From: an uncultured Candidatus Binatia bacterium | Lineage (GTDB): Bacteria > Desulfobacterota > Binatia > UBA9968 > JAJDTQ01 | Length of the DNA: 64,000 bases | Reading direction: 5' to 3' | NCBI GenBank assembly: GCA_965242525.1 | Contig: OZ251459.1 | Span: 2,400,001 to 2,464,000, forward strand | In this document: in pieces, positions 20,819-42,471 of the stretch | Layout: each line of letters starts with the position of its first letter | Numbering within the stretch: position 1 is the stretch's first letter | The notes under the pieces: generated by a model | What the model saw: only the letters and a program-made list of their open reading frames with translations | Told to the model about the DNA's origin: nothing | The model's database searches: none | Program-made: the position numbers and the translations under genes

Positions 20819-21065
20819 GGGAGTCCCCGACCCGATGGCGGATACGACGGCGCCGCGGCCGTGACGGCTCGGAGACCCCGCAAAGCCTCCCCGGAGTCCG
20901 GTCAGCGGTACGGTCCGTATCGCGTCTGGATCGGATGCCTTTCGTCGATCAGGAGTTCTCCCGACTCTTGACCGCTTGGTGGCGGCCGCCATCGGGCAGC
21001 GTGTTCGCCCACGAGACCGGCCGTTTGAAGGCTCGCTGCTTTCCGCCACTCAGGGATGATGTTTG

Positions 21066-24000: not shown

Positions 24001-24190
24001 GAGACATCATTGCCAGTATCCGCTCCAAGCCCGATACACCCAGACGATGTACGGCCGACGAGAAGACGCTTATCGAGATCCGCTCCAGGGTCGAGAGCAC
24101 ATCAAGAACACCTATCTCAAGCGTGTCGATGCGCCGGTTGGCGCGAAGGCGTCGCTCAAGTGCTGGATGGAGTTGCTTGATGCCAACTGA
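21066..24190 (+). CDS. PLD-nuclease domain + SNF2-like helicase (probable natural C-terminus reached via a -1 frameshift at about 24096)
   Basis: FHAK...GSSNFT PLD motif; DGVGLGKT, DEAH, TATP, SEGLNLQ, QRIGRVDR; alternative frame from 24098 reads HIKNTYLKRVDAPVGAKASLKCWMELLDAN* and overlaps the next ATG. Confidence 0.8.
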
Positions 24191-27100: not shown

Positions 27101-28106
27101 GTACCGCCGCCGTTACGCTGATTTTCTGAAGTCCGAATTTCCCCGCATACCGTTGCCGGGCAACCGTGCTCTGTTTGCAGAACTCGTTCCGGTCGGAGCA
27201 CGTCTCGTCAAGTTGCACTTGATGGAGGCCGAAATCGGCAGTGCGGTTGCTCGTGTTTCTTTTCCGGTTTCAGGCACTAATCAAGTGGACAAGGTATCTT
27301 ACACAGCCGGGGATGGCCGATCGGGGCGTGTCTGGATCAATCGTGACCAGTACTTCGATGGCGTAGCCCCGGACGATTTCACTTTCACCATTGGCGGCTA
27401 TCGTCCAGCGGAGAACTGGCTGAAAGAGCGCCAAGGCCGCGTGCTTTCTCAAGACGATGTCCTCTACTACCAGAGGGTCATCACTGCCTTGGCCGAAACC
27501 CGAAGCAGGATGACCGAGATCGACGACGTCATCAGTCGGCATGGTGGTTGGCCAGACGCCTTTCAGCCAAGGAAGACGGAAACCTCGAGGGCCAGGATCA
27601 TTCCGTTCCGCCCTCGCAAGATCGAACCAGAACTGTCGAACCGCTTCGTCACCTGTGTGCCACTCATCCCTCTGCAAGTAGCTGCAGGTGGCTTCGGCGA
27701 TCCACAGCATCTTGAAGACGGAGACTTTTATGAATGGGTAGCCGTTGAGCCACGTCACCGTCTGCGAAAAGGCATGTTCGTTGCCCAGGTCGTCGGCAAG
27801 TCCATGGAGCCCTTGATCCCCGAGGGTTCCTGGTGTCTGTTTCAGTCGCCCGTTGAAGGCACGCGCCAGGGCAAGACCGTTCTGGTTCAACTGCGAGATG
27901 CGCTGGATCCCGAAACCGGTCATCGCTATACAGTCAAACGCTACACGAGTGAGAAGATCCAAGCGGACGATGCTTGGCGCCACACTTGCATTACCCTGAA
28001 TCCGGTCAACCCCGACTTTGATCCTATTGTCCTCACCTCGGACGACGAGGGCGACGTCAAGGTTGTCGCAGAGTTGGTCGAGGTTCTGGAAGGCACACAT
28101 GATTGA
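24180..28106 (+). CDS. Type ISP/IIG-like N6-adenine methyltransferase-specificity protein with C-terminal S24 peptidase-like domain
   Basis: DPVIHFYESFL, GVFYTP, (H)PASGTGTFL, GNPPY, DDYTKFIR, DENVFDIQQGV, FPRIP, IGGY; tail GKSMEP...YTVKRY. Confidence 0.85.
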   Translation: MPTDHRTALAAIRRFDQLIAFLRDEMDWPIASGDFEDLTFDYTPEELGIKVQHAAKIQEIKRLRPLAPKQPWGVFFVKFEPKRLPVVALRSILGRVVLKKRASVNDAEQPTWAMEDLLFISNYGEGEARQISFAHFAAPAGGNRLPTLKVLGWDDRATLLHLDHVARELTQRLAWPDDEDDADAWREQWRTAFTLMHRETINTSQALSVHLAGLARSIRERIHFVLEIESDNGRITALMKAFRIALIHDLDEDGFADMAAQTIAYGLLSARIADRERATVPDFTGQMKTNPLLRDLMATFLHLSHGDHGTRIDFDELGVADVVELLDRANMEAVVRDFGDRNPREDPVIHFYESFLTEYDKRKRFKRGVFYTPRPVVSYIIRSVDALLCEDFGLADGLADTSTWAEMAERVEGLIIPEGVSPEQDFVQILHPASGTGTFLVEVIELIYKRCQEKWQSQGHDKGRIEALWNEYVPRHLLPRLHGYELQMAPYTIAHLKISLKLYETGYRFGVDERARVYLTNALEPAQDFSDLLDFAVPAIAHEAQAVNEVKAGQRFTVILGNPPYSGHSANKGKWLRGLLHGCAGDRSVESYFDVDGNRLKERNPKWLNDDYTKFIRLAHWQIEQTGQGIVGFVTNHSYLDNPTFRGMRESLSVTFPRIFLLDLHGNTKKRERTPDGGKDENVFDIQQGVAIGLFARSANEVATVNHADLWGGREHSKFVCLLNDHVLSTPWQTLSPQSPLHLFVPRSDKFQDEYDSGWRLDHVFPVHQVGMTTARDRVVIDFEAIPILERARRFRDSKEADVHLCAELGIPMKKGWNISKARELLQREDDLEDLIKPVLRRPFDARLILYHDSLVWRTMKKLMGHMLAGKNIGIITTRQCKDNWSAMVSNMIITHKALDAYDINSLFPLYIYPLDLATKTSSQRTPNLDSQFTQTFKAAIGLDLITDGVGNLTGTFGPEDIFHYIYTVCYSPEYRRRYADFLKSEFPRIPLPGNRALFAELVPVGARLVKLHLMEAEIGSAVARVSFPVSGTNQVDKVSYTAGDGRSGRVWINRDQYFDGVAPDDFTFTIGGYRPAENWLKERQGRVLSQDDVLYYQRVITALAETRSRMTEIDDVISRHGGWPDAFQPRKTETSRARIIPFRPRKIEPELSNRFVTCVPLIPLQVAAGGFGDPQHLEDGDFYEWVAVEPRHRLRKGMFVAQVVGKSMEPLIPEGSWCLFQSPVEGTRQGKTVLVQLRDALDPETGHRYTVKRYTSEKIQADDAWRHTCITLNPVNPDFDPIVLTSDDEGDVKVVAELVEVLEGTHD

Positions 28107-28172
28107 GACGGGACGGACAAACAGCGTAGTGCTGTGGCCATTTCCAGAATTTTGTGCCATGTGAGATCACTC

Positions 28173-30317
28173 ATGGCAAGACTTGATATGGAGATGCAGA
28201 GAGAGATTGAACAGCCTTTTCGTCCCCGGGCAAGACTGCTGCAACTGCTCGGCGACGAACTGATTGGCAGTCCGCGTCTTGCGGTCTTCGAACTGGTCAA
28301 GAACGCTTACGATGCAGACGCTACCGAGGCTGTCGTCCGGCTTGACCTCGCTTCCGAGGATGACCCCAAGATAACCGTGACCGACAATGGCGAAGGCATG
28401 TCGCCAGATATCATACGGTCCGTATGGCTCGTCCCGGGACATGAGTACCGACAACAACAGCGCGAACGCCGTGAGCGTACCCCTGCACACCATCGACTTC
28501 CTCTCGGGGAAAAGGGTCTCGGGCGCTTTGCAGTACACAAGCTGGGAAACCACATCCGTCTGATTACCCGTGCGCAAGGCTCGGACGAATGCGTTGTGGA
28601 GATCGACTGGAATAAACTGATTGCCCAACCATATCTGGACGAGGCGCCTGTCAGGATACGCATGCGACCCGCGGAAATATTTACACAGGAAAGAACGGGA
28701 ACGCGAATCGAAGTCACTGAACTGCGGCCGCCTGCGTGGTCAAGACGCGAGGTGCGACGTCTTCACAACCAGATCACGTCGATCTGTTCTCCGTTCAGGG
28801 AGCCGGGATATTTTCGAGTGACTCTGGAGGTTCCGGGAAGGGAAAGTTGGATCGGGAATCTCCCCGATTTTGCAGCAATAGTGGAGCAGGCGATATGGAA
28901 GTTTACATTTTGGCTGGAAGATGGAAAATTTGATTGGGAGTACGAGTTTCGGCGACTTCCAGGGTTCGGTCTGGATGGTCGCAAGGTTTCGAAGGAGAGT
29001 GACAGACTGCAACTTCCATTGAGATCCGACGGTAACAGGATGGAAAGAAAAGTTATCGCCGACGAAGCAACTACTCGGGGAATCGGTCCAATTCTTGGAG
29101 AATTCCATGTTTTCGATCGTGATCGGGAAGTGCTTCGGCAACTGACGAATACTCGTCTGATGACCGAATATCTGGATGAAAACGGAGGAGTTCGTGTTTA
29201 TCGTGACGGTATTCGAGTTTACAACTACGGGGAACAGGGCGATGATTGGCTGGGTCTCGATTTGCGGCGCGTGAATATTCCGACTCGTCGTATCAGTCGT
29301 AACATTATCCTGGGTGCGATTCATCTCTCTCTGGATTTATCGGATAGACTGCTGGAAAAGACCAGTCGCGAGGGTTTCGTCGAGAACGACGCCTGCAACC
29401 GACTCAGGCAAATCGTGCTGGGGGCACTGGGGGCGCTGGAAGCAGAACGACAGAAGGACAAAGAGCAAATCAGACGGCTGGCAGAGAGCCCAAGGGACCC
29501 CGTGACCTCCCGGATCAAGAAACCGATTCAAGACTTGAGGGAAGCGCTTGCCGAACAGGAAGTGGCCGACAAATTTGAACCCTACGTAGCGAGGATCGAA
29601 CAGTATTACGACAACATGCAGGAGACGCTGCTTGCCGCCGGCATGTCTGGCTTGAATCTTGCGGTGGTGTTCCACGAGGTGGAGAGGGGCGTCCGCGTCC
29701 TGCATCAGGTCATACTCGAAGGCCGGGACATGGCGGGTGCCGCCAGCCAAGCTCAGGAGCTAGTGCATCTTCTCGACGGTTTTGCCACACTGTTGCGTCG
29801 AGACAGCAAGAAACGACACCATGCAAGTCGCCTCGGTCGGGCGGCGCGGCAGTTCAATAGCTTGCGGCTTCGCCACCACCGGGTCAAGTTTACCTGTCCG
29901 CTGCTTGATGGCGAAGGGGATTTTGAAGCGATCTTTTCGTTCAGACTGATGGTGGGAGCCTTGAACAACCTGATCGACAATTCACTTTACTGGCTCAGAG
30001 TCCGATGGCCAGAAGTCCCGAAGGAGGATGAAAGCTTTGAACGCCGTCTTTTCGTGGGCGCGACCCGGGATTTTGACGACGGACCGGCCATTATCGTTGC
30101 AGATAACGGGGAAGGGTTTCAGGGTGATGACCCAGAGCATCTTGCATATCCGTTTTTTACGCGTAAACCGGACGGCATGGGTCTTGGCCTCTACTATGCA
30201 AACCTTACCATGGAGTTACATGGGGGACGCTTGGTGTTCCCGCAACCGGACGAAGTCGACGTCCCTGATGGATATGACGGTGCTATTGTTGCCATGATTT
30301 TCAAGGAAGAAAAGTGA
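28173..30317 (+). CDS. GHKL (MORC/MutL-like) ATPase fused to a C-terminal histidine-kinase module
   Basis: ELVKNAYDADA, DNGEGM, GEKGLGRF; C-terminal VFHEVE H-box, NLIDNS, DNGEGF, PFFTRKPDGMGLGL. Confidence 0.88.
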   Translation: MARLDMEMQREIEQPFRPRARLLQLLGDELIGSPRLAVFELVKNAYDADATEAVVRLDLASEDDPKITVTDNGEGMSPDIIRSVWLVPGHEYRQQQRERRERTPAHHRLPLGEKGLGRFAVHKLGNHIRLITRAQGSDECVVEIDWNKLIAQPYLDEAPVRIRMRPAEIFTQERTGTRIEVTELRPPAWSRREVRRLHNQITSICSPFREPGYFRVTLEVPGRESWIGNLPDFAAIVEQAIWKFTFWLEDGKFDWEYEFRRLPGFGLDGRKVSKESDRLQLPLRSDGNRMERKVIADEATTRGIGPILGEFHVFDRDREVLRQLTNTRLMTEYLDENGGVRVYRDGIRVYNYGEQGDDWLGLDLRRVNIPTRRISRNIILGAIHLSLDLSDRLLEKTSREGFVENDACNRLRQIVLGALGALEAERQKDKEQIRRLAESPRDPVTSRIKKPIQDLREALAEQEVADKFEPYVARIEQYYDNMQETLLAAGMSGLNLAVVFHEVERGVRVLHQVILEGRDMAGAASQAQELVHLLDGFATLLRRDSKKRHHASRLGRAARQFNSLRLRHHRVKFTCPLLDGEGDFEAIFSFRLMVGALNNLIDNSLYWLRVRWPEVPKEDESFERRLFVGATRDFDDGPAIIVADNGEGFQGDDPEHLAYPFFTRKPDGMGLGLYYANLTMELHGGRLVFPQPDEVDVPDGYDGAIVAMIFKEEK

Positions 30318-31615
30318 TGCTTACCTCTCCAAGGGTCATAGTCGTCGATGACGAGATCGACCATCTGCAAGGTTTGGTACGGTGTCTGAATCGCCATGGC
30401 GCGGCGTGTCTCGGAATACACTTTACAGGAGACCCTTCCGGTATCAAGCCGTGCCCGGACGTCCGAATCATCTTCGCCGATCTGCACCTTGCCGGTCCTG
30501 CATCCAATCCAGATGCGTATTTTGCTACAATCGGCGGACTCCTCGAGGAGACGATCCAGCCGTCCGGTCCTTACTTCATCGTGTTATGGACCGTATATCC
30601 AGATCAGGCGTCGGCGCTGTTGAAGTTCCTCGAGGGTCGGCTTCAGGGTGTAACGAAACCCTTTGACATTCTCCCACTGGGAAAAGGCAGATACCTCGAC
30701 GAGAAGGGTCTGGTCAGGGACGAAGAAGCACTGATGGCGGAAATCCAGGCTATCACCGAAAGGCTTCCTCAAGTCGCTGCCCTTTTCAATTGGGAGCGTC
30801 GTGTGCTCGAAGCGACAGGGAAGACTCTGGCGTCGGTGCTTGAACTGGTGTCAGCAGAAGAAGTGGACAGACGGGCATCGGAGGTCGGCAGGATTCTCGC
30901 GAGCCTTGCAAGCGCGGCAGTTGGCCAGCCTCACGTGGAAGAGGATCGCTTTGGGGCCGTCAACGATGCACTCTTGCCAGTTCTCGCCGACCGGATTGCC
31001 AGTCTGCGCAAAACCGACAGCGACAGGGATGTCTGGGAGAAGGCTTTCGATTCTGTCGTTGTTTCACAAAACCTTTCAGTCCAGGTGAAGGCAAGGCTCA
31101 ATCAGTTGATTCACATCGACGTTATGGAACTCGGCCTCGTGAAAGGATCCGATCTTGGGGCCATCGTTCCACTGCCGGAATCATTTCGGAAAGACTTCGA
31201 GGACATATTTGGAATCGGCGAGAAGGAAGCAGCTAAAACGCAGTTTCACTGTAAGGATTTCAATCCGCAGAGTGATCGTTTTCGCTGGATATTGGTGCAA
31301 TCGCAGGCGGCGTGTGACCACGCTCAGACGCAGCCAGGATCGTTACCATACTATCTTGGCCTCGACCTTCCTCATGCCTGTGTCCAGAAGAATCGGACGC
31401 CTCCTGAGCATTTGTGGAGAACTCCCATATTCAAATTCGGTGGTGGAATTCGTGTTCTGCATGTCAGTGCCCGTTTCCCGACGGGAATGTCTCACGTTCA
31501 GGCTCAGAGTACCACACCGATATACCGACTTCGTGAACAGATCTTCAACCATATGATCTACAGACTCCACAGTCATGGTGCTCGTCCGGGCATGATCTCC
31601 TTTCCCGGGCGGTGA
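30317..31615 (+). CDS. Response-regulator receiver domain protein with unknown C-terminal domain
   Basis: VIVVDDE, IIFADLHL, IVLWT; ACDHAQ and YRLRE...RPG conserved-looking motifs; TGATG coupling to the kinase. Confidence 0.75.
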   Translation: MLTSPRVIVVDDEIDHLQGLVRCLNRHGAACLGIHFTGDPSGIKPCPDVRIIFADLHLAGPASNPDAYFATIGGLLEETIQPSGPYFIVLWTVYPDQASALLKFLEGRLQGVTKPFDILPLGKGRYLDEKGLVRDEEALMAEIQAITERLPQVAALFNWERRVLEATGKTLASVLELVSAEEVDRRASEVGRILASLASAAVGQPHVEEDRFGAVNDALLPVLADRIASLRKTDSDRDVWEKAFDSVVVSQNLSVQVKARLNQLIHIDVMELGLVKGSDLGAIVPLPESFRKDFEDIFGIGEKEAAKTQFHCKDFNPQSDRFRWILVQSQAACDHAQTQPGSLPYYLGLDLPHACVQKNRTPPEHLWRTPIFKFGGGIRVLHVSARFPTGMSHVQAQSTTPIYRLREQIFNHMIYRLHSHGARPGMISFPGR

Positions 31616-31662
31616 GTATCCCGCCGGTTACAGCGATCTTGCAGAGTATCTGGAACACATGG

Positions 31663-32616
31663 TCAGACGCTCGATACCAGTGACCGGACTACCGTTTCCA
31701 TGACCGGCGGACATACGCCATTTCCGAGAAGCCGTATCTGGTCGCGGCGTGAACCTGCGGGCAACCTGAAGTCGTCGCTGAACCCCATGGCCCGCTTGAG
31801 TTCGGGCACCTGTAGCATCCGCATCCTCGGCGCGCCACCATCCCAGTGGACGAGTGCAAACCGGTCCACGGTGGTGATCGTGCGGAGGGGACGGTCGAGA
31901 GGCTGCCAGCCCCCGCTTCCGTCATTGCTGTAATAGACGAGCAGGAAACTGGCATATTCGCCAAGGGCGTCGAATCCCCGTTTCGCCCTTTCGAGGGTGG
32001 CGTTCGCACGCTTCGCCTTGAACAGAGGAGAGGTTCTCCACGTGCCGGCCGGATCGAGTATGGACGCTGCCGTCTTGCGGCGCCCAGAGTACCTGTTTAG
32101 TGTCGGGTTTGGGGGATGCTCGCGGTCGCACACCAGAAACAACCTTTTTCGCGTCTGGGGGACCCTGAAGTCGGCCGCGTCAAAGGTCCGCTCGTCGAGG
32201 TGGTAACCCAGTTCCCGGAGATTCCTTTTCAGTTCCTCGTACCGTGACCAGGGACGCATGTAGATGACGTTCTCGAGAACGAGCCAACGGGGTTGGAGAA
32301 AGCGGGCATACTCGACCACGAGCATTGCGGTGGCACGGCTGGACTCGTCTCTCGGCGCCGAACCTTTGGCGCAGGTGTGATTGCGACACTCTGGCGACGC
32401 GAGCAGGAGGTCGATCCGGCCCACCGCGGCCTTGAAGCGGTTGATAGACAGGTCTTCCAGCCGGCTGGTGACGACGTGGGCTTCCGGGAAGTTTGCTGCG
32501 AAGGTAGTGGTAGCGGTCGCGCACATGTCGATTCCAGCTACGATCTCGACACCTGCCGCTCTTGCCCCGGCACTGCTCCCTCCTGCCCCGCAGAAGATGT
32601 CACATCCCCGTATCAC
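31663..32616 (-). CDS. dcm: C5 cytosine DNA methyltransferase
   Basis: DIFCGAGG, SPEC, ENV, PQTRKRLF, LGNGV; GTG start overlaps the vsr stop. Confidence 0.92.
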   Translation of the reverse strand: MIRGCDIFCGAGGSSAGARAAGVEIVAGIDMCATATTTFAANFPEAHVVTSRLEDLSINRFKAAVGRIDLLLASPECRNHTCAKGSAPRDESSRATAMLVVEYARFLQPRWLVLENVIYMRPWSRYEELKRNLRELGYHLDERTFDAADFRVPQTRKRLFLVCDREHPPNPTLNRYSGRRKTAASILDPAGTWRTSPLFKAKRANATLERAKRGFDALGEYASFLLVYYSNDGSGGWQPLDRPLRTITTVDRFALVHWDGGAPRMRMLQVPELKRAMGFSDDFRLPAGSRRDQIRLLGNGVCPPVMETVVRSLVSSV

Positions 32617-33050
32617 CTGACAGACTCGCTTGCGTCGCCCCTCTCCGAACCCAGGTAGTTCAGGAGGCGTTCCTGCATCGCCGCTTCGTTGCGGGTCTCG
32701 CACTCCCAGAGGACGAGGACCTGCCATCCGAGTCGTTTCAAGGCGTCTTCGTTTCGGTGATCTCGGTCAACGTTCTGGCTGAACTTGTCGGTCCAGAACT
32801 GCACTCTGGTTTTTGGTGTGTAGGCGTATGGGCAGCCACTGTGCCTGTGCCAGAAGCAGCCATGCACGAGGACAACGGCCCGGTGCCTTGGAAACACCAG
32901 ATCAGGATGGCCCGGCAGGTCCTTGCGATACAGGCGGAAGCGGAATCCCAGGCGGTGCGCCATGCGGCGGACGACGAGTTCCGGGGTCGTGTCCCGCCAT
33001 TTGATCCTGGACATCATCTCGCTTCGTCTCTTGCCATCCACGATGTCCAT
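32613..33050 (-). CDS. vsr: Very short patch repair endonuclease
   Basis: MDIVD..RRSEMMSRI..RDTTPE, LPGHPDLVF, VHGCFWHRH, FWTDKF..NV.RD, GWQVLVLWECE. Confidence 0.93.
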   Translation of the reverse strand: MDIVDGKRRSEMMSRIKWRDTTPELVVRRMAHRLGFRFRLYRKDLPGHPDLVFPRHRAVVLVHGCFWHRHSGCPYAYTPKTRVQFWTDKFSQNVDRDHRNEDALKRLGWQVLVLWECETRNEAAMQERLLNYLGSERGDASESVR

Positions 33051-33355
33051 TTTGAAACTGTCTGTTGTCCGAGGACGGTCGCCACGACCGTCCTCGGATG
33101 GTCCCAACCGAGGTTTGAAGGTAAAAACCAGCGTACCATACCACAGGTTGGCCGTTATTGTGCAGCGGATTCGAGATAACGTCGGTTTCGGTTGGCTCGG
33201 AGACGGCATCGGCGTCTTGTCCATCATCGTAACCTGAATCATGGTCCTCCCGTCGCCGCGGCGCATGCGCGTGGACGCTGGACCGTCCGGGGTCGATCTG
33301 CTAGACGTACACTCTTTGTATGGCCGCCTCGGCCCCTTGAACACGTCGATTCCCA

Positions 33356-34237
33356 ATGGCGCAAGACCGCGTGACCCTGGGGCTGATCCAGTCCGGAGCG
33401 GCCCCGGATCCGGACCGCAACCTCGCCGCGACCGCGCGGCGCATACGTCGTGCCGCGGAGGGCGGCGCCGAGGTCGTCTGCGTCCAGGAGTTGTTCCGCT
33501 CGCGGTACTTTCCCCGGACCGAGGACACTGCCTCGTTCGGCCTGGCGGAGACCATCCCCGGTCCCACCACCGAGCGGTTCCGCCCCCTGGCCCGGGACCT
33601 GGAGGTGGTCATCGTGGCCTCCGTGTTCGAGGCCCGCGCCCCCGGCGTCTATCACAACACCGCGGTGGTCATCGACGCGGACGGACGGGTCCTGGGCAAG
33701 TACCGCAAGATGCACATCCCCGACGACCCGGGCTTCCACGAGAAGTTCTACTTCACCCCCGGGGACCTGGGTTTCCCCGTGTTCCGCACCCGCCATGCCC
33801 GTGTGGGCGTGTTGATCTGCTGGGACCAGTGGTTTCCGGAAGCGGCGCGCCTGGCGGCCCTCGGAGGCGCCGAGATCCTCTTCTTCCCCACCGCCATCGG
33901 CTGGCGCGCGGACGAGGGCGCGGCGGCGCGCCGGGCCCAGCTCGACGCATGGGAGCTGGTGCAGCGTTCCCACGCGGTGACCAACGGCGTGTACGTGGCC
34001 GCGGTCAACCGCGTGGGCCGGGAGGGGGACCTCACCTTCTGGGGAAGCTCCTTTGCCGCGGACCCCTCCGGCCGGGTGCTGGCCCGGGCCGCCCGGCGCA
34101 AGGCCGAGACCCTGCTGGTGGAATGTGACCGGGCCGCGGTGGCGGAAGCCCGCCACGACTGGCCGTTCCTGAGGGACCGCCGGGTGGATGCCTATGGCGG
34201 CCTCACCCGCCGGCTGCTGGACGGCGAGCCCGGCTGA
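33356..34237 (+). CDS. aguB: Carbon-nitrogen hydrolase, N-carbamoylputrescine amidase-like
   Basis: QELF, YRKMHIPDDPGFHEKFYF, ICWDQWFPE, PTAIGW; adjacent to agmatine deiminase. Confidence 0.88.
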   Translation: MAQDRVTLGLIQSGAAPDPDRNLAATARRIRRAAEGGAEVVCVQELFRSRYFPRTEDTASFGLAETIPGPTTERFRPLARDLEVVIVASVFEARAPGVYHNTAVVIDADGRVLGKYRKMHIPDDPGFHEKFYFTPGDLGFPVFRTRHARVGVLICWDQWFPEAARLAALGGAEILFFPTAIGWRADEGAAARRAQLDAWELVQRSHAVTNGVYVAAVNRVGREGDLTFWGSSFAADPSGRVLARAARRKAETLLVECDRAAVAEARHDWPFLRDRRVDAYGGLTRRLLDGEPG

Positions 34238-35820: not shown

Positions 35821-35982
35821 GGAACCCTGAACGACGCCACCCGTCCCTGAACGACGCCACGCCGGAACGGGGGGTCAGTTATGGCCGTCACCGGATCCCC
35901 GTCCCTGAACGCCGCCGCCCGTTCGTCCTGAGCGTAGCGTAGCGGAGTCGAAGGACGGGATCTTCGATTGCTCAGAGGTTCC
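35821..35982 (+). mobile_element. Divergent MITE copy
   Basis: GGAACCCTGAAC...REP-like core...CGATTGCTCAGAGGTTCC; imperfect TCGA flanks. Confidence 0.65.
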
Positions 35983-36408: not shown

Positions 36409-37788
36409 ATGGCGGACGTGACCGAGAACTTTCGCAAGCTCCCGCCCCAGAACCTGGAGGCGGAGGCGTCGATCCTCGGCGGCGTGCTGCTGGACAACGA
36501 GTCCATGAACATCGTGGTGGAGCTGGTGAAGTTCGACGACCTGTACCGGGACTCGCACCGCAAGATCTACCGGGCCATGGTGGACCTCTGGGAACGCAGC
36601 GAGCCGGTGGACCTCATCACCCTGAGCGACCACATGAAGGCCAAGGGCGAGCTGGAGTCCGTCGGCGGCTCCGCCTACCTGGCCGAACTCGCGACCCAGA
36701 TCCCCACCGCGGCCAACATCGCCCACTACGCGCGCATCGTGCGGGACAAGGCCATACTGCGCCACCTGATCCGGGCCTCCACCGACATCGCCACACGGGG
36801 GCTGGAGGAAAGGGGCGACGTCGATACCTTCCTGGACGACGCGGAACGCGCCATCTTCGACATCTCGGAAAAACGCATCGGGGCCTCCTTCGTGAAGGTC
36901 GGCGACGTCATGATGGACGCCATCAAGAAGGTCGAGACGCTCTACAACCGCAAGGAGATGGTGACCGGAGTGGCCACCGGCTACCGGGACCTGGACCTGT
37001 TGACCGCGGGGTTCCAGCCGTCGGACCTGTTGATCGTCGCGGGGCGGCCGGCCATGGGGAAGACCGCGTTCGCCCTCAACGTCGCGGCCAACGCCTCGCT
37101 GCACCAGGGCGTGGGCGTGGCGGTCTTCTCACTGGAGATGGCCACGGAGCAACTGGTGCTGAGGCTGCTTTGCTCGGAGGCGAGGGTGGATCATGCCCGG
37201 CTCCGCACCGGCCACCTGAAGGAAAGCGAGTTCCCGGAGCTGGTGACGGCCGCGGGGAGGCTCAGGGACGCGCCGGTCTATATCGACGACACGCCCGCGT
37301 TGTCGGTGCTGGAGGTCCGGGCCAAGACCCGGCGGCTGTTGCGGGACAAGTCCAGCAAGCTGGGCCTGGTGGTCATCGACTACCTCCAGCTCATGCGCGG
37401 CCACGGCGATTCGCCCAACCGCGAGCAGGAGATCTCGGAGATCTCGCGCTCCCTCAAGGCCCTCGCCAAGGAGCTGAGCGTTCCGGTGGTGGCCATCTCC
37501 CAGCTCAACCGGCGGGTGGAGGAGCGGAGCGACAAGCGCCCGGTCATGGCCGACCTGCGGGAGTCCGGCGCCATCGAGCAGGACGCCGACGTGATCATGT
37601 TCGTGTACCGGGACGATGCCTACGACCCGAAGAAGAACCCGGGCCTGGCCGAGGTCATCGTGGCCAAGCAGCGCAACGGCCCGGTGGACACGGTGCAACT
37701 CGCCTTCCTCAAGGAATACACCCGCTTCGAGGACTATTCGGGACGCGACGACGAGGGTTACTCGGACGCCGAAGCCGAGGAGTATTAG
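36409..37788 (+). CDS. dnaB: Replicative DNA helicase
   Basis: PPQNLEAE, AGRPAMGKT, FSLEM, IDYLQLM, SQLNR, DLRESGAIEQDAD, KQRNGP. Confidence 0.97.
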   Translation: MADVTENFRKLPPQNLEAEASILGGVLLDNESMNIVVELVKFDDLYRDSHRKIYRAMVDLWERSEPVDLITLSDHMKAKGELESVGGSAYLAELATQIPTAANIAHYARIVRDKAILRHLIRASTDIATRGLEERGDVDTFLDDAERAIFDISEKRIGASFVKVGDVMMDAIKKVETLYNRKEMVTGVATGYRDLDLLTAGFQPSDLLIVAGRPAMGKTAFALNVAANASLHQGVGVAVFSLEMATEQLVLRLLCSEARVDHARLRTGHLKESEFPELVTAAGRLRDAPVYIDDTPALSVLEVRAKTRRLLRDKSSKLGLVVIDYLQLMRGHGDSPNREQEISEISRSLKALAKELSVPVVAISQLNRRVEERSDKRPVMADLRESGAIEQDADVIMFVYRDDAYDPKKNPGLAEVIVAKQRNGPVDTVQLAFLKEYTRFEDYSGRDDEGYSDAEAEEY

Positions 37789-37790
37789 GA

Positions 37791-37819
37791 GGGTTTCCCC
37801 GCACGCGCGGGGATAGACT
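37791..37819 (+). CRISPR. Solitary type I-E-like CRISPR repeat R1
   Basis: GGGTTTCCCCGCACGCGCGGGGATAGACT, 29 nt, CCCCGC/GCGGGG stem; no regular spacers and no cas genes in the window. Confidence 0.65.
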
Positions 37820-38064
37820 CGAACCCGTCCGCACGCCGATAGCAATACGGGTTTATGGCGACGACGGGATATGTTTACTTGGGCGCGCCAATGGAGATCC
37901 TGCGGGAGAGTGGCCGGACTGGGCAGACGGGCGCGCCAAACGACGGCTACCCAGCCGGTATCCGGGGGAGCGTGCAACCAGCTATGTAGCCACGACTGGG
38001 CGGTTTTCAAGGCTTCGGAACTTGCCGGAATGCGGCCGGCCGTCTTCGGAGTAAGGGAAGGGAA

Positions 38065-38262
38065 ATGGCAAAGGGGAAACTGGTTTGGCATCGACACAAG
38101 CGGACCGAAGGCACGGCCGTTGTTTGCGGCGCCAGTGTCAAGCGCGCTCGGGCTCGGGTGGAAGCCTGGTCCGATGTTTCCTGCATGGTTTGCATACGCA
38201 AAGGGCATGAAAGCGGGGAATACCCTTATGGGCAAGCGCCCGAAGAGGACAACCGGCAATAA
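38065..38262 (+). CDS. Small phage-like protein with possible metal-binding H/C...CxxC residues
   Basis: Purine-rich RBS; 65 aa with WHRH...VCG...SCMVC. Confidence 0.45.
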   Translation: MAKGKLVWHRHKRTEGTAVVCGASVKRARARVEAWSDVSCMVCIRKGHESGEYPYGQAPEEDNRQ

Positions 38263-38337
38263 TGTATGTACTCCCTTACGATCACTTTGGTTCGATGGCA
38301 ACTATAATCGGAACCTTAACAGGTTCCGGCAGGCCGT

Positions 38338-38406
38338 GGCGCCGGAAGCATTCACGCTACTCTCATGCCTGCGGGCGAGCGCGGGGGTCGTGGCCCGCCC
38401 GGCGCC
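38338..38406 (+). ncRNA. Putative structured small RNA, copy 1 (69 nt)
   Basis: Terminal stem GGCGCCGG/CCGGCGCC; internal GCAT/ATGC and GCGGG/CCCGC hairpins; homologous to copies 2 and 3. Confidence 0.55.
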
Positions 38407-38408
38407 AC

Positions 38409-38750
38409 TCACCACTTTCCCTCTTGTCTATCGGACCTTCTTGAACCTTCGGCGGGCGACCCTGATGTCGCAATCTCGCCCGCGAAGTCGTCCACCAACT
38501 GAAAGGCGGCCTGCGCTCCTTGGACCGATCCGGCGACGGTCTCCAAGAACGCCTCCAGCGTCTGCGTGTCGACGCCGAGGACACGACTGACGAGGTTACG
38601 GACGCCGTTGCTGAGCGAAGAAGCCAGACTGGTCAATCCGACAGCCGCCGGCAGCGGGGACACCGACTTCGAGGCTCTGAGGACCTTCTTCAGCGATCCG
38701 GAGAAGTGATCGACGAAACGCAGGATCGCGCGCAGATTCAGGTCAGCCAT
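38409..38750 (-). pseudogene. Phage tape-measure protein 5' fragment 1
   Basis: MADLNLRAILRFVDHFSG... and LEAFLETVAGSVQGAQAAFQLVDDFA resemble a TMP N-terminus and tape-measure domain; truncated. Confidence 0.55.
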
Positions 38751-38786
38751 GGTTGACTTTCAGGGTGGGAGGCATATATTCACAGT

Positions 38787-38960
38787 ATGGATTTCATCAT
38801 CGGCATCGTGCTCATCTGGATCGCCGTGAAGCTCTGGAGGATCGCCAAGAAACTGGAGCGGGTGGTGGAGGTGATGACAAGCATCGATCCCGACGACCTC
38901 GATGCGACGTTTAGGGCGCTAGACGAAATCGACCCACCTGCGAAGTCCGCTCCGCATTGA
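38787..38960 (+). CDS. Small single-TM membrane protein (57 aa; moron 1), not in the ORF track
   Basis: MDFIIGIVLIWIAVKLWRIAKKLERVV...; TTGACT(38753)-N16-TATATT(38775), then 6 nt to ATG. Confidence 0.65.
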   Translation: MDFIIGIVLIWIAVKLWRIAKKLERVVEVMTSIDPDDLDATFRALDEIDPPAKSAPH

Positions 38961-39186
38961 GCGCCTCACTCGCCCCGTCCTCCATCCACATCAACCCGTC
39001 CAGGGTCTCCGGCGCCAGAGGCAGCAGCCCCGACAGGTCCAACAGCGCCCGCCCCCTGGGTTCAGTCGAGGCCCACGCCACCGGCCCGAAGCCGGCTCCA
39101 ATCAAGCCTCTCTCGGCCGACTTCACCGACTCTTGCGTCTGGTCCCGGCCACGGATGCTGATGAGCGCGGCGAGATTCGTGGCCAT
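38911..39186 (-). pseudogene. Chimera: tape-measure 5' fragment 2 joined to the 3' end of a DUF1799-like tail chaperone
   Basis: MATNLAALISIRGRDQTQESVKSAERGL followed by RALLDLSGLLPLAPETLDGLMWMEDGASEALN. Confidence 0.5.
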
Positions 39187-39220
39187 TGACTTGATTCCTC
39201 TGGTGCTCTATACGGGAGCC

Positions 39221-39439
39221 ATGAGAGTCAGGATCGACCTTGATTTGGGCGGGGTCCTTAGCTGCATCGGCGCCATGCTTTACGTCTTGGTGACCGGGAT
39301 CGTGCTGTTCAGCGCCGTGCTCCTCATGGCGGACGGCGTCCGCTTCTCGCTTCCCACCATCCTGATGCTGAGCCTGCTGGGCACGCTCGTCGTGCCGGCT
39401 GTGCGCTACATCGTCCGGTTCAATCGCTACGGCAGTTGA
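39221..39439 (+). CDS. Small two-TM membrane protein (72 aa; moron 2)
   Basis: Two hydrophobic segments; TTGACT(39186)-N17-TATACG(39209), then 6 nt to ATG. Confidence 0.65.
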   Translation: MRVRIDLDLGGVLSCIGAMLYVLVTGIVLFSAVLLMADGVRFSLPTILMLSLLGTLVVPAVRYIVRFNRYGS

Positions 39440-39573
39440 GCGCCGCGGCCGCGCCTTCCGCCATCCACATCAACCCGTCCAGCGTGTCCCGTTCCAGTGG
39501 CAGCAGGCCCGCCATGTCGAGGGTCGCTCGCACTCCGGGCCAGTCCAGACGCCAGATCACGTAGCCCGTCTGC
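39420..39573 (-). pseudogene. 3' end of a DUF1799-like tail chaperone, copy 2
   Basis: GYVIWRLDWPGVRATLDMAGLLPLERDTLDGLMWMAEGAAAALN*, homologous to 38960-39060 at DNA and protein level. Confidence 0.5.
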
Positions 39574-39578
39574 CCGAG

Positions 39579-39607
39579 AGGTTCCCCCGCACGTGCAGGG
39601 ATAGACT
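39579..39607 (+). CRISPR. Solitary type I-E-like CRISPR repeat R2
   Basis: AGGTTCCCCCGCACGTGCAGGGATAGACT, 29 nt. Confidence 0.65.
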
Positions 39608-39629
39608 CGGCGCGGACCGGAGGTCCGTT

Positions 39630-39877
39630 CCGGTCCCGCGGGTGAGGTCGAATACGGCCTCGGCCGCCTCCTGGGTCGGCGTGGCCTGCAACGCGGTGTC
39701 CGCAATGCGACCGATCCGCCGGATGATGCCTATGCCGCCCAGGACGGTCAGGGCGTCGGCGCAGTACTTGCCGATGTTGCCGGCCAGGCGGCGGAAGCGC
39801 TTGTCGGCCGAATCCGTCCCCGCCTTGGTCCTGTCCAAGGCTTCGAGGACCGCCCCGAATCTTATGGGATCAGCCAC
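39630..39877 (-). pseudogene. Phage tape-measure protein 5' fragment 3
   Basis: GTG start MADPIRFGAVLEALDRTKAGTDSADKRFRRLAGNIGK...; same geometry as fragments 1 and 2. Confidence 0.5.
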
Positions 39878-39913
39878 TTGACACCAGTTCCTTCGATGGC
39901 TATTGGGATAGGC

Positions 39914-40093
39914 ATGGCAACCATCGCCGAGTTCGTCCTGCGGGTAGGGTTCGCCGTGGCGCTGATCTTCGCCTCGCCGTTTCTGCTGCTCTTCATCTTG
40001 AGCTACCAGGAACATCCCGAGTTGGCCTTGATGTCCGGCGGAATAGCTGCATGGCTGCTCATGAAGATCTTCGTGCCGCGGCGGTATCAGTGA
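39914..40093 (+). CDS. Small two-TM membrane protein (59 aa; moron 3)
   Basis: MATIAEFVLRVGFAVALIFASPFLLLFIL...; TTGACA(39878)-N17-TATTGG(39901), then 7 nt to ATG. Confidence 0.65.
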   Translation: MATIAEFVLRVGFAVALIFASPFLLLFILSYQEHPELALMSGGIAAWLLMKIFVPRRYQ

Positions 40094-40284
40094 TCCGCCT
40101 CATGTGACCTTCCGGTTCAGCGCATCATCGACCAAGACGAAGTACTCCAGCCCAACAAACGTCCTCCAGGACGGACCCGAGACCTACCTGCTCGCGCTGC
40201 ACCGCATGGAGGAATACATCCTCGCCGCCGCTCGCCGGAAACCGAAGAAAATCAGGCAGGGAAGTCGAAAAGCTGTTGAGATGA

Positions 40285-40355
40285 GGCGCTGGGCGGGCCA
40301 CAACCCCCGCGCTCGCCCGCAGGCATGAGAGTATTGCGAATATGCTTCCAGCGCC
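40285..40355 (-). ncRNA. Putative structured small RNA, copy 2 (71 nt)
   Basis: GGCGCTGG/CCAGCGCC terminal stem; promoter TTGACA(40391-40386)-N17-TAGGTT(40368-40363) 7 nt upstream. Confidence 0.6.
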
Positions 40356-40477
40356 AGCCCGGAACCTAACCCGGACCGCCGCAGTTGTCAATCAGAAGGT
40401 TGGCTTCTTGCGGCTTTTGTGTGGGCAGGATTTACGGCGTAGGTACGGCGAGGTTGAGGGAAGGAGTCGTCTACCGG

Positions 40478-40635
40478 GGAAGGCGTGGCCTTCGACCCCT
40501 AGCCGGGGCAGGAGCGGTTGGAGTGGCGGCGCTCCGGCAGGGTATTGCTACGTGGGAGTCGAGATCGACCCTCTATTTGCAGAGGTGGCTAGGCAGCAGC
40601 TATCTCTGATTGACAATGGCGACGGCCTGGTTTAG
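40478..40635 (+). pseudogene. Degenerate C-terminal fragment of a beta-class (N4/N6) DNA methyltransferase
   Basis: Across frameshifts: VAFDP-LAGAGAVGVAALRQG-YCYVGVEIDPLFAEVARQQL. Confidence 0.55.
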
Positions 40636-40645
40636 GTTCCGGGCT

Positions 40646-40711
40646 GGCGCTGGAAGCAGCACTACTCTCATGCCTGCGGGCGAGCGCGGGGATTGCGTCC
40701 CGCCCAGCGCC
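40646..40711 (+). ncRNA. Putative structured small RNA, copy 3 (66 nt)
   Basis: GGCGCTGG/CCAGCGCC stem; promoter TTGACA(40610)-N17-TAGGTT(40633) 7 nt upstream. Confidence 0.6.
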
Positions 40712-40775
40712 ACTTCCTCGCTTTTCAAGTTTCTCCTGCTCTCCCACCTTCTTCCATTTCCGGCGAGCGGCTCGG

Positions 40776-40804
40776 AGGTTCCCCCGCACGTGCGGGGATA
40801 GGCC
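40776..40804 (+). CRISPR. Solitary type I-E-like CRISPR repeat R3
   Basis: AGGTTCCCCCGCACGTGCGGGGATAGGCC, 29 nt. Confidence 0.65.
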
Positions 40805-40864
40805 TTTGGTTGCCGGGTCCGTGCTCGGACGTCGAGGACGTATTCGGAGTTTGCGGCCGGGAAT

Positions 40865-41296
40865 CTACGCTGCCCGGTCCTCGACCACGAGGCTGCGTCC
40901 GATGGCTCGCAGGGCCTTCTCCACTTGGCTGATGTGAGAGCGGTGGCCGGGGTTCAGCAGCTTGCGGACGGCGCCCTCGCTCAGCCCCAGGCGAGCGGCG
41001 AGGGCGACCTTGGTGACGCCTTGGCTGCGCATCGCCGAATAGAGGGCGACCTTGGCCGCGACGATGGGAGGAACCGCGACGAGTTCCTGGCCTTGGGCAG
41101 CGGCGCTTGGAGCCGGGACGTCCTCACGGCCATGAACGTAGGCGCTCAAGGCGGCCGCCAAGGCATCCTCGGCCATAGTCAGCGCCTCGGCCCGATCCTC
41201 GCCGCAGGTGAGCGCTTCAGGCACGTCCGGGAAAGAGACGGAGAAACCGCCGCCGTCCGCCTCGGGAGCCAGCACGCAGGGGTAGGCGTAGCGCAT
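40865..41296 (-). CDS. hicB: HicB family antitoxin with C-terminal HTH
   Basis: MRYAYP...GGFSVSFPDVPEALTCG...EAL.MAEDAL; VTKVALAARLG...RKLLNP. Confidence 0.88.
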   Translation of the reverse strand: MRYAYPCVLAPEADGGGFSVSFPDVPEALTCGEDRAEALTMAEDALAAALSAYVHGREDVPAPSAAAQGQELVAVPPIVAAKVALYSAMRSQGVTKVALAARLGLSEGAVRKLLNPGHRSHISQVEKALRAIGRSLVVEDRAA

Positions 41297-41457
41297 CAGA
41301 AGTCCTCCTTCGGGATGTCCAGTTGCTTCAGCATGGCCTGAAAGGCCCCAAGCTTCAGTTCTCCATGTTTGACGGTCGTGCGACGGTCGCCAACGTAGAG
41401 CACGCCATGGTTGCCCTTCCCGTGGCGTGGATCGAAACGGAACGGCTTTCCGACTTT
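41296..41457 (-). pseudogene. hicA: 5'-truncated HicA toxin
   Basis: FRFDPRHGKGNHGVLYVGDRRTTVKHGEL..GAFQAMLKQLDI*; TGATG overlap with hicB; in-frame TAA immediately upstream and no start codon before the motif. Confidence 0.7.
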
Positions 41458-41493
41458 TTAGAAGGCTTTGGCTACGGGAAGGGGAGAACCACC

Positions 41494-41748
41494 GTGACGG
41501 AGTTTGAAGCCGCAACGCTCGCACTACAGCAGCAACAGCTTTGGGCCGCTCTCGCCGTCCCCCTTGTCGCCCTCATTGTCGGAGCCGGGCAGGTCATCGT
41601 CGTCTCTGTCGGTATCCGGGTCATGCGGCGCACATCGGATCAGAGGGAGAAGCGCGAAGACGCCCGCCACGCCGAAGCGATGGAAGCGCTGCGACAGCAG
41701 GCCGAAGCCTTGCGCGTCCTCATCGAACGGACCGCGCCTCGCCGGTAA
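41494..41748 (+). CDS. Small TM + coiled-coil protein (paralogue A)
   Basis: GGGGAG RBS and GTG start; TM segment then REDARHAEAMEALRQQ...LIERT. Confidence 0.65.
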   Translation: MTEFEAATLALQQQQLWAALAVPLVALIVGAGQVIVVSVGIRVMRRTSDQREKREDARHAEAMEALRQQAEALRVLIERTAPRR

Positions 41749-41961
41749 CGGCCGGCGCCGCCGGGGAAGGGAGACAGCGCTACGGGAACCACCGGCCGCT
41801 ACGGCCCACGGAGACGGAAACCGAAGTAGCGGCCATGCCTGCGTTGGCAGGTCCGCCGCGGAAAACAAACCCTGCATTCGTCTCTGTCGGGGGAGTCGCA
41901 GACGGGTCGCGCCGCGCAACGATGGCCCCGGATTCTGCGGGCGGTTCCGGTGCGGCGGCGG

Positions 41962-42300
41962 TCATTGGCTGTCTCTCTTCGGCGATGTTCTCTCGATCAG
42001 GGTCTCCATGCCTCTGATGAGGCCCCGGAGAGATTCGTCCTGCTGCCGGAGAGATTCGCCCTGCTGCCGGAGCGCTTCCATGCTTTCGGCATGGTTGCTC
42101 CGGAGCACTTCCATGCTTTCGGTATGGTTGCTCCGGAGCGCTTCCATGCTTTCGGCATGGCGCTGGTCTTCGCGACGCGCCCGTTCCTCCGTGGACTGGC
42201 GCATCTGCCGCAAGCCTATGAGGATGGCCGTAACCGATCCCAAAGCGGCGACGGCGCTGATGCCCCGGAGAACGGTGTTGGCAAGCTCGTAGTCCGTCAT
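41962..42300 (-). CDS. Small TM + coiled-coil protein (paralogue B) with internal tandem repeats
   Basis: GGGAG RBS; REDQRHAESMEALR...LIERT; 33-bp x3 and 21-bp x2 in-frame repeats. Confidence 0.7.
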   Translation of the reverse strand: MTDYELANTVLRGISAVAALGSVTAILIGLRQMRQSTEERARREDQRHAESMEALRSNHTESMEVLRSNHAESMEALRQQGESLRQQDESLRGLIRGMETLIERTSPKRDSQ

Positions 42301-42471
42301 GTCCGTCTCCCTTCCTGCGATTGATAACACGCCCTGCATGGAACCACCACATGATCTACGGGAAACCCTGAACAACGGCCCGTTCGTCCTGAGCGAAGCG
42401 AAGCCGAAGGACGCGCTTGGCGAATCGAGAGTGCGCCAGCGTAGCGGCGAAAGCGCCCGCGGCGGACCCCG

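Follow-up and report, generated by a model that had tools for sequence, protein, structure and literature searches.

A cloverleaf-shaped RNA linked to a predicted toxin domain of phage MuF proteins, possibly its antidote, at a Candidatus Binatia locus

Introduction

A stretch of 64,000 nucleotides (nt) from an uncultured Candidatus Binatia bacterium (assembly GCA_965242525.1, contig OZ251459.1, positions 2,400,001 to 2,464,000; the whole stretch is called the window below) contains three copies of a short element that had been noted, from the letters alone, as an unrecognised structured RNA. The locus is chromosomal and lies between dnaB and hicB. The question it raises is whether such an RNA family exists, what it is associated with, and which function could be attributed to it. 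The analysis revealed a structured RNA class present in several phyla, in most loci followed by a convergent gene for a protein domain with a predicted ribonuclease (RNase)-like toxin fold. It is possible, at somewhat short of an even chance, that the RNA is the antitoxin or immunity factor (antidote) of this domain.

Three copies of an RNA absent from Rfam

With covariance model R1, the copies were located at 38336..38408 on the plus strand (copy 1, 92.4 bits), 40283..40357 on the minus strand (copy 2, 97.6 bits) and 40644..40713 on the plus strand (copy 3, 88.1 bits), with ends at most 2 nt away from those of the original prediction. The invariant core reported for them is an exact 29-mer, TACTCTCATGCCTGCGGGCGAGCGCGGGG, common to all three and found at 38358 (+), 40305 (-) and 40663 (+), while no match occurred in any of 100 shuffles. 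The two strands of the closing stem are GGCGCCGG/CCGGCGCC for copy 1 but GGCGCTGG/CCAGCGCC for the other two, and the reported compensatory change, from C-G in copy 1 to U-A in copies 2 and 3, is a true exchange. Copies 2 and 3 are in divergent orientation. A fourth copy is located elsewhere in the same genome (G000:C1:667215-667291).

The Rfam check that had been proposed was performed. No match was obtained for the whole window with the Rfam 15 covariance models at gathering scores, and a scan of positions 37700-41000 with E-values up to 10 gave no match of the tRNA clan. The only Rfam rows over any copy were b55 and mir-263 at copy 1. Their 19.8 and 15.6 bits stay below the respective gathering scores (70 and 51.3), and their E-value of about 4 is chance level. 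ARAGORN predicted no tRNA or tmRNA gene in the window. The element is thus a structured RNA family absent from Rfam. A self-cleaving ribozyme or a riboswitch was considered and rejected on the lack of an Rfam match and of a same-strand gene downstream. A kinship with the P4 CI and P1 c4 RNAs had also been suggested; these phage RNAs are in Rfam, and no Rfam family matched the copies.

Fold and covariation

The fold was studied on 69 distinct homologues fitted to the covariance model, and on a plain MAFFT alignment of 12 copies. Such a model had been proposed earlier, and the homologues show strong further covariation. Pairing was kept in 93.2% of 1296 cells of the large alignment, compared with 42-52% when the partners were slid, and 11 of the 19 base pairs vary on both sides; in the plain alignment 95.6% of the cells pair. 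The architecture is a four-way junction composed of a closing stem P1 of 10 bp, a D-like stem P4 of 2 bp, a stem P3 of 4 bp with a tetraloop, and a T-like stem P2 of 5 bp stacked on P1. Both pairs of the short P4 are exchanged among homologues, with AU in 39, GC in 26 and no unpaired case for columns 12-34, and GC in 37, UA in 14, UG in 9 and other combinations in 7 for columns 13-33. The tetraloop of P3 is UUCG, UGCG or UACG, and this stem also has an invariant U-G pair.

The P4 loop forms a loop-loop pseudoknot of 4-7 bp with the 3' side of the P2 loop. Exchanges in this helix include CGUA/UACG, CGCC/GGCG, CACG/CGUG and CGGU/GCCG, and its mean length was 5.2 bp versus 4.5 bp for permuted partners (standard deviation 0.11, maximum 4.85, 500 permutations). 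Among the copies of the window's own genome, both P1 and the pseudoknot show compensatory differences, and in the divergent copies of the genus P1, P2 and P3 are all altered with pairing retained. These results show that the RNA is a well-supported class of structured RNA, cloverleaf-shaped and pseudoknotted; it is predicted to be noncoding and about 72-78 nt long.

Two hairpins of the original prediction fared differently. The 5-bp hairpin stacked on the terminal stem corresponds to the T-arm-like hairpin, which is supported by covariation, while the GCA(T)/(A)TGC hairpin had to be dropped, with 27 of 68 homologues carrying letters at G13-C41 that are unable to pair there. The term tRNA mimic is fair as a description of the shape, as covariation supports the cloverleaf, the stacked T-like arm and a kissing contact resembling that of the D- and T-loops. 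Like a tRNA, the RNA is built around a four-way junction and has a T-arm-like hairpin of 5 bp stacked directly on the closing stem; its D-like arm is short, and the loops of these two arms pair with each other. Unlike in tRNA, the closing stem has 10 bp instead of 7, the third arm consists of 4 bp with a UNCG-type tetraloop in place of a 7-nt anticodon loop on a 5-bp stem, and the loop-loop contact is a helix of 4-7 bp; both ARAGORN and Rfam are blind to it.

Promoter-like boxes

Identical TTGACA-N17-TAGGTT boxes with differing spacers precede copy 2 (40363..40391, minus strand) and copy 3 (40610..40638, plus strand). They end 7 nt before the starts first given for these copies and 5 nt before those of the model. 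The claim of sigma70 promoters held in part: the boxes are present at copies 2 and 3, but a stricter sigma-70 scan calls neither, and copy 1 has no such boxes (promoter score 5/9). Of 68 sequences, 28 have boxes of the -35/-10 type 4-6 nt ahead of the model start, compared with 1.3% of shuffles. This suggests that the RNA has its own transcription unit with promoter-like boxes.

Distribution of the RNA

An exact-pattern scan of one genome per species yielded 62 loci. Three of them (L070, L081 and L086) were set aside by eye as chance matches inside coding sequence, and the RNA was present in all 59 loci that were given to the covariance model. By their record titles, the loci belong mostly to alphaproteobacterial metagenome-assembled genomes, and some to Gammaproteobacteria, Vicinamibacteraceae and Candidatus Binatia, the window's genus; counted by accession prefixes they are spread over about 36 assemblies. 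Within the genus, BLAST and the covariance model found the RNA in 8 of 28 genomes. Some genomes carry ten or more copies, and tandem runs of two to five RNA genes, each with its own upstream region, occur in some (L078/L079, L087, L103). A metagenome run containing part of the window stretch is labelled sponge metagenome.

The identical core in several phyla speaks for horizontal spread, and the data point to a distribution of the RNA across phyla by gene transfer. No exact core was found in viral contigs. In close relatives the RNA module is situated at different sites, and one genus genome (G002) has a fragment comprising the 3' half of the RNA. In another (G023) the module is on the other side of the HicB-like gene, which means that either the module or its surroundings moved.

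The partner domain

Downstream of most RNA copies an open reading frame (ORF) is present on the opposite strand, ending with the motif ...DGxETYLxSLHK/R.... It encodes a domain of about 110 amino acids (aa), found either as the C-terminus of a protein of 350-650 aa or as a stand-alone ORF of 110-160 aa; some of the stand-alone ORFs are visibly truncated MuF genes. For the long form (protein of L115), matches were obtained with MuF (PF04233, 3.6e-23), TIGR01641 (1.8e-12) and phrog_220, 'minor head protein and DNA pilot' (5.6e-92). The evidence for the MuF N-terminal domain comes from the relatives, as the window holds just a stub of the toxin gene.

The domain itself matched no family of Pfam, NCBIfam, PADLOC or PHROGs; the annotation searches of the domain and the small ORFs of the window gave only a sub-threshold match to Pfam DUF4398 (E 0.0068). 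In a collection of 5.8 billion proteins it formed 53 clusters, none of them with a Pfam domain, and the single source name shown, for one cluster, was 'hypothetical protein'. AlphaFold prediction on 24 sequences gave a predicted local distance difference test score of 89 and a predicted template modelling score of 0.83. The best structural matches were a Salmonella toxin of a toxin-antitoxin (TA) pair (Z 7.3), BrnT (6.8), two CdiA-CT toxins (6.2 and 5.8) and colicin D tRNase (5.8 and 5.1). BrnT was also the top match in Foldseek (E 0.014), and the nearest clusters in the ESM Atlas were PBECR2 and PBECR3, at 0.91. The near-invariant residues of the domain (R, S, T, K, Q, H, D, Y, K, H) would fit an enzyme. 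Without exception, the structural neighbours belong to the RelE, BrnT, CdiA-CT and colicin D tRNase kind. The predicted structure thus points to an RNase-like toxin of the barnase-EndoU-colicin E5/D-RelE (BECR) kind.

Linkage of RNA and domain

A hidden Markov model (HMM) of the domain matched 41 of the 59 RNA loci; it had been built from 22 of these 41, many of the genomes are kin and several loci are duplicates. Screening of 62 places left about 24 genuine cases of a domain gene convergent to the RNA; in these, some 21-41 nt separate the RNA core from the stop codon beyond it. This places the stop codon within about 15 nt of the RNA 3' end, so that the two ends abut.

The linkage was also found in the opposite direction. 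Searching 5 alphaproteobacterial genomes and the 28 genus genomes with the protein gave 23 domain matches, and the RNA was adjacent in 17. For full-length matches this was the case in 12 of 13, the exception having an in-frame TGA. Four of the 13 were places new beyond the RNA-led search, three of them with divergent RNA (25.6-39.9 bits). A metagenome contig found via the protein likewise carries the RNA, with 76 bits. RNA without the domain is common, as seen in 18 of the 59 loci, in tandem RNA arrays and in the window's own genome. The pair was encountered in three settings, namely in prophages, as a stand-alone unit and inside cas loci.

No ORF family that could provide a protein immunity gene was recurrent on the far (upstream) side of the RNA beyond repeats within single genomes, and the measured toxin-RNA junctions, with the stop 21-41 nt from the RNA core, leave no room for an ORF between the two. 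Neither was a transposase or integrase recurrent among the flanking ORF families.

Toxin-gene remnants beside the window copies

The intact domain gene is absent from the window's own genome. The only match in a whole-genome search with alignment A4 (E 0.0031) was a stub of 32 codons beside copy 2, at 40167..40262 on the plus strand, covering profile positions 79-110 and convergent to this copy (HMM E 1.1e-4). Copy 3 is followed by a tail (40714..40776) homologous to this stub and cut off by a solitary repeat described below; positions 40220-40249 and 40749-40778 form an inverted repeat (I7) with 83% complementarity. At copy 1, the stop of a minus-strand ORF of 113 aa (38409..38750) abuts the RNA, and its last ten or so codons resemble, by eye, the tail of the toxin domain. 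Some 3' end of the toxin gene is thus retained behind each of the three copies. Neither these stubs nor the solitary repeats adjoining the copies had been noticed in the original prediction. The best reading of this arrangement is that the window copies are toxin-less orphans whose toxin gene was probably deleted to stubs.

Copy 1 is placed antisense within the 3' trailer of the 113-aa ORF, directly behind its stop, and a terminator-like hairpin is found on the opposite strand just upstream of this copy (38328-38309).

Association with type I-E CRISPR repeats

Three solitary repeats of the type I-E CRISPR kind are present in the window, all on the plus strand. Repeat A (37792..37821) starts 4 nt after the dnaB stop and contains a 22-nt core at 37797-37818, CCCCGCACGCGCGGGGATAGAC. 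Repeat B is at 39580..39609, at the frame break of a minus-strand ORF, and repeat C at 40777..40806, 63 nt downstream of copy 3; the boxes of copy 3 are 139 nt upstream of it. These three, compared with 0.04 expected, are the only ones in the genome. The core of repeat A is identical to the repeat of genuine arrays of congeners, and the same repeat forms genuine arrays, with 14-102 matches each, in nine other genomes of the genus. On metagenome contigs, the bins holding the repeats reached 4-35 times the background depth (about 35 times for the bin of repeat C) and repeats were joined by inserts of 24-32 nt, which indicates that real arrays are present in the metagenomes.

Neither Cas6e nor Cas7e was found in the window's own genome. 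No Cas remnants were detected in the window by tblastn; the queries were the L151 ORFs of cas3, cse1, cse2, cas7 and cas5, together with the few ORFs of the G009 contig that passed a GC3 filter, which had removed most Cas ORFs of the G009 locus. The genome does contain two Cas1 genes (G000:C1:753473-754339 and 434473-435306), one of them in an open frame of 604 aa; together with the lack of the I-E genes Cas6e and Cas7e, this shows that other CRISPR types are present.

Repeats and RNA modules were also found together in other genomes. In G002 (L050, 7959-9860), five I-E repeats in the same orientation enclose 162, 1111, 211 and 273 nt of foreign-looking DNA. Three of these stretches hold an RNA gene or fragment and others hold phage gene fragments, and two units show the order repeat, promoter, RNA, repeat. 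The inserts include the 3' end of a phage tail-like gene and an ORF resembling a tail-assembly chaperone, both named by eye. One repeat precedes an RNA copy in G023. On a metagenome contig (L154, 1880-3080), an I-E array ends in a truncated repeat to which a 5'-truncated MuF gene is joined in-line, and this gene is followed by the RNA. G063 (L094) has a perfect solitary repeat and an AT-rich stretch 130 nt upstream of the RNA promoter. Direct repeats of about 40 nt (L094 1380-1420 and 2282-2322) flank the unit of domain, RNA, AT-rich stretch and solitary repeat in this genome, and the unit looks as if it had been inserted as a cassette.

In two alphaproteobacteria, G061 and G062, a stand-alone domain gene and the RNA are situated between cas3 and cse1 of complete I-E loci. 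A degenerate repeat-spacer-repeat mini-array directly follows cas3 in both (L151 6369-6459 in G061; L152 6863-6941 in G062). In G061, 13 of 15 spacer positions agree with the sequence immediately upstream of the toxin ORF, with ATG as protospacer-adjacent motif, and 1 of 300 shuffled spacers equalled this score. For G062 the match is 14 of 15 positions, flanked by ATA, and none of 300 shuffled spacers equalled it. These modules are candidates for an I-E CrePA-like module with a BECR-like toxin.

For the remaining alphaproteobacterial, gammaproteobacterial and Vicinamibacteraceae loci, no I-E-like repeat was found within 2 kb except at L077 (G061) and L094 (G063). With repeats near some loci only, the tie to CRISPR is recurrent and not universal. 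Several explanations were tried and rejected. The RNA is no CRISPR leader, as the array-bearing genomes G014, G022, G015, G026, G005, G001, G011 and G006 have no RNA match at all; in G009, two RNA copies are carried on contigs other than its array contig. A decayed array at a conserved site finds no support, the window showing no synteny with the arrays of G014 and G022. As for a CreA-like mini-array at the window repeats, possible second repeats at +58 and +63, picked by eye, were no better than random positions; no second repeat above background was found in the window, G002 or G023. One possibility for the frequent position of repeats at breakpoints beside module fragments would be recombination of phage- or module-borne repeats with host arrays, as is suggested for solitary repeats in excerpts of PMC10651486.

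Possible function of the RNA and alternative explanations

As antidote, the RNA would be transcribed constitutively from its own promoter and bind the toxin domain as a tRNA-shaped pseudo-substrate, and the bound RNA would hold the toxin inactive in the cell that encodes it, thereby doing the job that a protein immunity gene does for other MuF toxins. In the window, and for the fourth copy of the genome, the toxin gene would have been reduced to stubs while the RNA genes stayed whole, in the manner of orphan immunity genes, with promoters retained at copies 2 and 3 but not at copy 1. To this function we give slightly less than an even chance. It is suggested by the joint travel of the pair in prophage, stand-alone and cas-locus settings and by the rarity of an intact toxin without the RNA, which itself is often alone or multiplied. 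In addition, the RNA has a shape that would be apt for a pseudo-substrate, given an RNase with tRNA-cutting structural relatives, and the RNA fills the slot of the MuF protein immunity gene as described in excerpts of PMC5576092. The 'immunity' of the original prediction would survive at most as immunity to a toxin, deduced from gene linkage only, and not as superinfection immunity of the repressor type.

Several results weigh against the antidote function. On the side of the RNA, TAGGTT agrees with TATAAT at 3 of 6 positions and the stricter sigma-70 scan passes over both sites. No intrinsic terminator was seen after the RNA in the sequence or in a terminator scan. Folding energy Z-scores were between -0.16 and -1.3 in this GC-rich DNA and the opposite strand folds equally well; with energies not better than those of shuffles and equal on both strands, this measure is uninformative here. 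On the side of the domain, the Pfam PBECR models gave no match at E-values up to 1, and on that account 'RNase' and 'toxin' are deductions; the structural Z-scores of 5.1-7.3 are modest, and values under 8 can reflect a common arrangement. As regards the linkage, the counts are mostly non-independent for the reasons given above (HMM source, kin genomes, duplicate loci). On two viral contigs with distant homologues of the domain (32-35% identity), no RNA was detectable (best E 0.069). At L154 the toxin stop and the RNA are separated by an ORF of 38 codons (approximately 2845-2961), which might encode an immunity protein. Finally, the convergent layout is equally typical of antisense control.

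Such a type I-like control, in which the RNA would be the stable 5' domain of a longer transcript running into the convergent 3' end of the toxin gene and would act by duplex formation or transcriptional collision, with no protein binding, appears unlikely. The layout is that of the Bacillus prophage type I pairs txpA/RatA and bsrG/SR4, which are convergent with touching 3' ends; here, too, the 3' ends touch, with the toxin stop 21-41 nt beyond the RNA core, and with no terminator after the RNA, read-through into the toxin ORF would be expected. However, what is conserved across phyla is the folded part, which contains a pseudoknot and a UNCG loop and is situated outside the toxin ORF, and antisense pairing needs no such fold; moreover, orphan RNA genes and tandem arrays persist with no toxin gene to pair with. 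Also quite unlikely is a cofactor or cargo role, in which the MuF protein or its C-terminal domain would require the RNA instead of being opposed by it, be it as a ribonucleoprotein partner, as a processed or modified substrate, or as RNA packed in the capsid. A cofactor of an absent protein would leave the same solitary and multiplied RNA genes unexplained. The tight two-way linkage, the tRNA-like shape and the nature of the long form as a head and DNA-pilot protein would agree with such a role, for which the phi29 pRNA at the portal can be compared, but the pair is also encountered in short stand-alone form, outside prophages as well as within cas loci.

Very unlikely, in our opinion, is an RNA directed at CRISPR, that is, the structured 5' part of a transcript with a solitary I-E repeat, serving as a Racr-like decoy for Cas6e/Cas7e or as a CreA-like regulator. 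The 139 nt between the boxes of copy 3 and repeat C fall inside the 250-bp promoter rule for Racr candidates (excerpts of PMC10651486), the two ordered units of G002 would fit, and genuine arrays with the same repeat exist in nine genomes of the genus and in the same metagenomes. Yet the RNA tracks the toxin domain and not the repeats, the alphaproteobacterial, gammaproteobacterial and Vicinamibacteraceae loci other than L077 and L094 have no I-E-like repeat within 2 kb, and the geometry between repeat and RNA varies between genomes; in addition, the own genome is devoid of Cas6e and Cas7e and no second degenerate repeat stands at the expected spacing. Most improbable of all would be an element that acts as DNA and lacks any RNA function, for instance as a bidirectional terminator, as a site of recombination or attachment, or as a repeat resembling a miniature inverted-repeat transposable element. 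In its favour, copies 1 and 2 form inverted repeats around small gene pairs, the module moves between sites in close relatives, the 3'-half fragment of G002 recalls the attachment-site remnants of tRNA genes, and the opposite strand folds equally well. On the other hand, the pseudoknot, the invariant U-G pair of P3 and the UNCG loop are strand-specific features of an RNA, the promoter-like boxes keep a fixed distance across phyla, and no transposase or integrase travels with the RNA.

The antidote function can be extended to a wider scenario, which we regard as doubtful. In it, the tRNA-shaped RNA would provide protein-free immunity to a MuF toxin of the BECR type that is injected by phages and is probably a tRNA-directed RNase, and orphan and tandem copies would shield their hosts against superinfecting phages. 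I-E loci would have captured the pair as a Cascade-repressed addiction module or as an anti-anti-CRISPR module, and the solitary repeats in genomes without the cas genes would be the wreckage of this alliance or of recombination between phage and array.

Comparison with known systems

The proposed mode resembles type III TA systems (ToxIN, CptIN, TenpIN), in which an RNase toxin is checked by an adjacent, folded and pseudoknotted noncoding RNA. According to abstracts on type III systems, their antitoxin is a tandem repeat array that precedes the toxin gene, shares its transcript and is cleaved by the toxin. Here, each unit instead has a single cloverleaf-shaped RNA that runs convergent to the toxin and has promoter-like boxes of its own. 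For the toxin, a BECR/RelE-like and not a ToxN-like fold is predicted, ToxN having a different one. In type I TA systems an antisense RNA overlaps the toxin mRNA; at the present loci the genes are convergent with abutting ends, and any overlap of the transcripts would depend on their 3' ends.

To our knowledge, polymorphic toxins and most TA pairs are neutralised by proteins, and RNA antitoxins acting on a protein are known only as the tandem-repeat type III. Excerpts of Jamet et al. 2017 (PMC5576092) describe MuF polymorphic toxins as having an N-terminal MuF domain (PF04233), a variable C-terminal toxin predicted to be delivered with the phage DNA, and an immunity gene immediately downstream. 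The long form of the relatives agrees in its PF04233 domain, its toxin-like C-terminus and a putative protecting gene, here proposed to be the RNA, immediately downstream. It differs in that a convergent RNA gene takes the place of the conserved protein immunity gene, and in a C-terminal domain that has no Pfam or NCBIfam match.

As in CrePA/CreTA, the modules of G061 and G062 have a single-domain toxin ORF of phage derivation between cas3 and the large-subunit gene (cse1), preceded by a mini-array whose spacer partly matches the toxin promoter (for the architecture of CRISPR-repressed toxins, see excerpts of bioRxiv 10.1101/2024.01.05.574328 and PMC8501985). In contrast to these systems, the subtype is I-E and not I-F or I-B, the toxin is BECR-like and not KilAC or RNA, and an extra convergent tRNA-like RNA is present; the window itself has neither cas genes nor a mini-array. 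As in Racr candidates, the solitary repeats of the window match a CRISPR repeat in use in the genus and repeat C is less than 250 bp downstream of promoter-like boxes. Unlike in these candidates, a structured RNA of 70 nt and a toxin-gene stub stand between promoter and repeat, two of the three window repeats have no such promoter and the host has no I-E cas genes. As to the carrier, the window locus is chromosomal with stubs of a phage-derived gene, and the exact-core scan found no viral contig.

Both partners are uncatalogued, the RNA having no Rfam entry and the domain no entry in Pfam or NCBIfam, which is why annotation pipelines miss them. A description of MuF toxins with an RNA partner, or of this motif, was not found in literature listings and abstracts, subscription journals being outside this coverage. 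If a single-copy, tRNA-shaped RNA does guard against a phage-delivered RNase, this would be a new mode of toxin neutralisation and a new use of tRNA mimicry. The tie to I-E systems in two forms, as a toxin promoter putatively targeted by Cascade in two genomes and as repeats fused to module fragments in others, would offer a testable link between phage toxin, RNA antidote and CRISPR self-protection. Even with the mechanism wrong, the RNA is a new class of structured RNA distributed across phyla.

Genomic surroundings of the window locus

The 1.9 kb of small paralogous genes around which copies 1 and 2 are placed as inverted repeats (I1) contain, at 38409-40093, three paralogous divergent gene pairs. 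Each pair consists of a minus-strand ORF of about 90-113 aa and a hydrophobic plus-strand ORF of 57-72 aa, with promoter-like boxes of its own (e.g. TTGACT-N16-TATATT at 38753-38780). The frame of the third minus-strand ORF breaks precisely at solitary repeat B. For the ORFs of 113, 91 and 57 aa and the 71-aa frame at 39878-40093, no NCBIfam, PADLOC or PHROGs family and no Pfam match above threshold were found.

The RNA locus is bordered by a HicB-like antitoxin gene at 40865-41524 (PF15919, phrog_497). Further downstream, a frame at 41504-42292 without a family match contains, at 42025-42165, a 21-nt tandem repeat in 2 copies and a 33-nt one in 3 copies. On the other side, an island of lower GC content (0.53-0.59) at 21063-33356 comprises four genes, encoding a type ISP restriction-modification fusion of 2347 aa with PLD-nuclease and S24 peptidase domains, a 727-aa protein with a double HATPase, a C-5 cytosine methylase and a Vsr endonuclease. 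A dispersed element resembling repetitive extragenic palindromic sequences, GCCCGTTCGTCCTGAGCG..., was detected at 35917-35946 and 42378-42407 as well as in L004 and L051, and it recurs at the borders of islands both in this genome and in G023.

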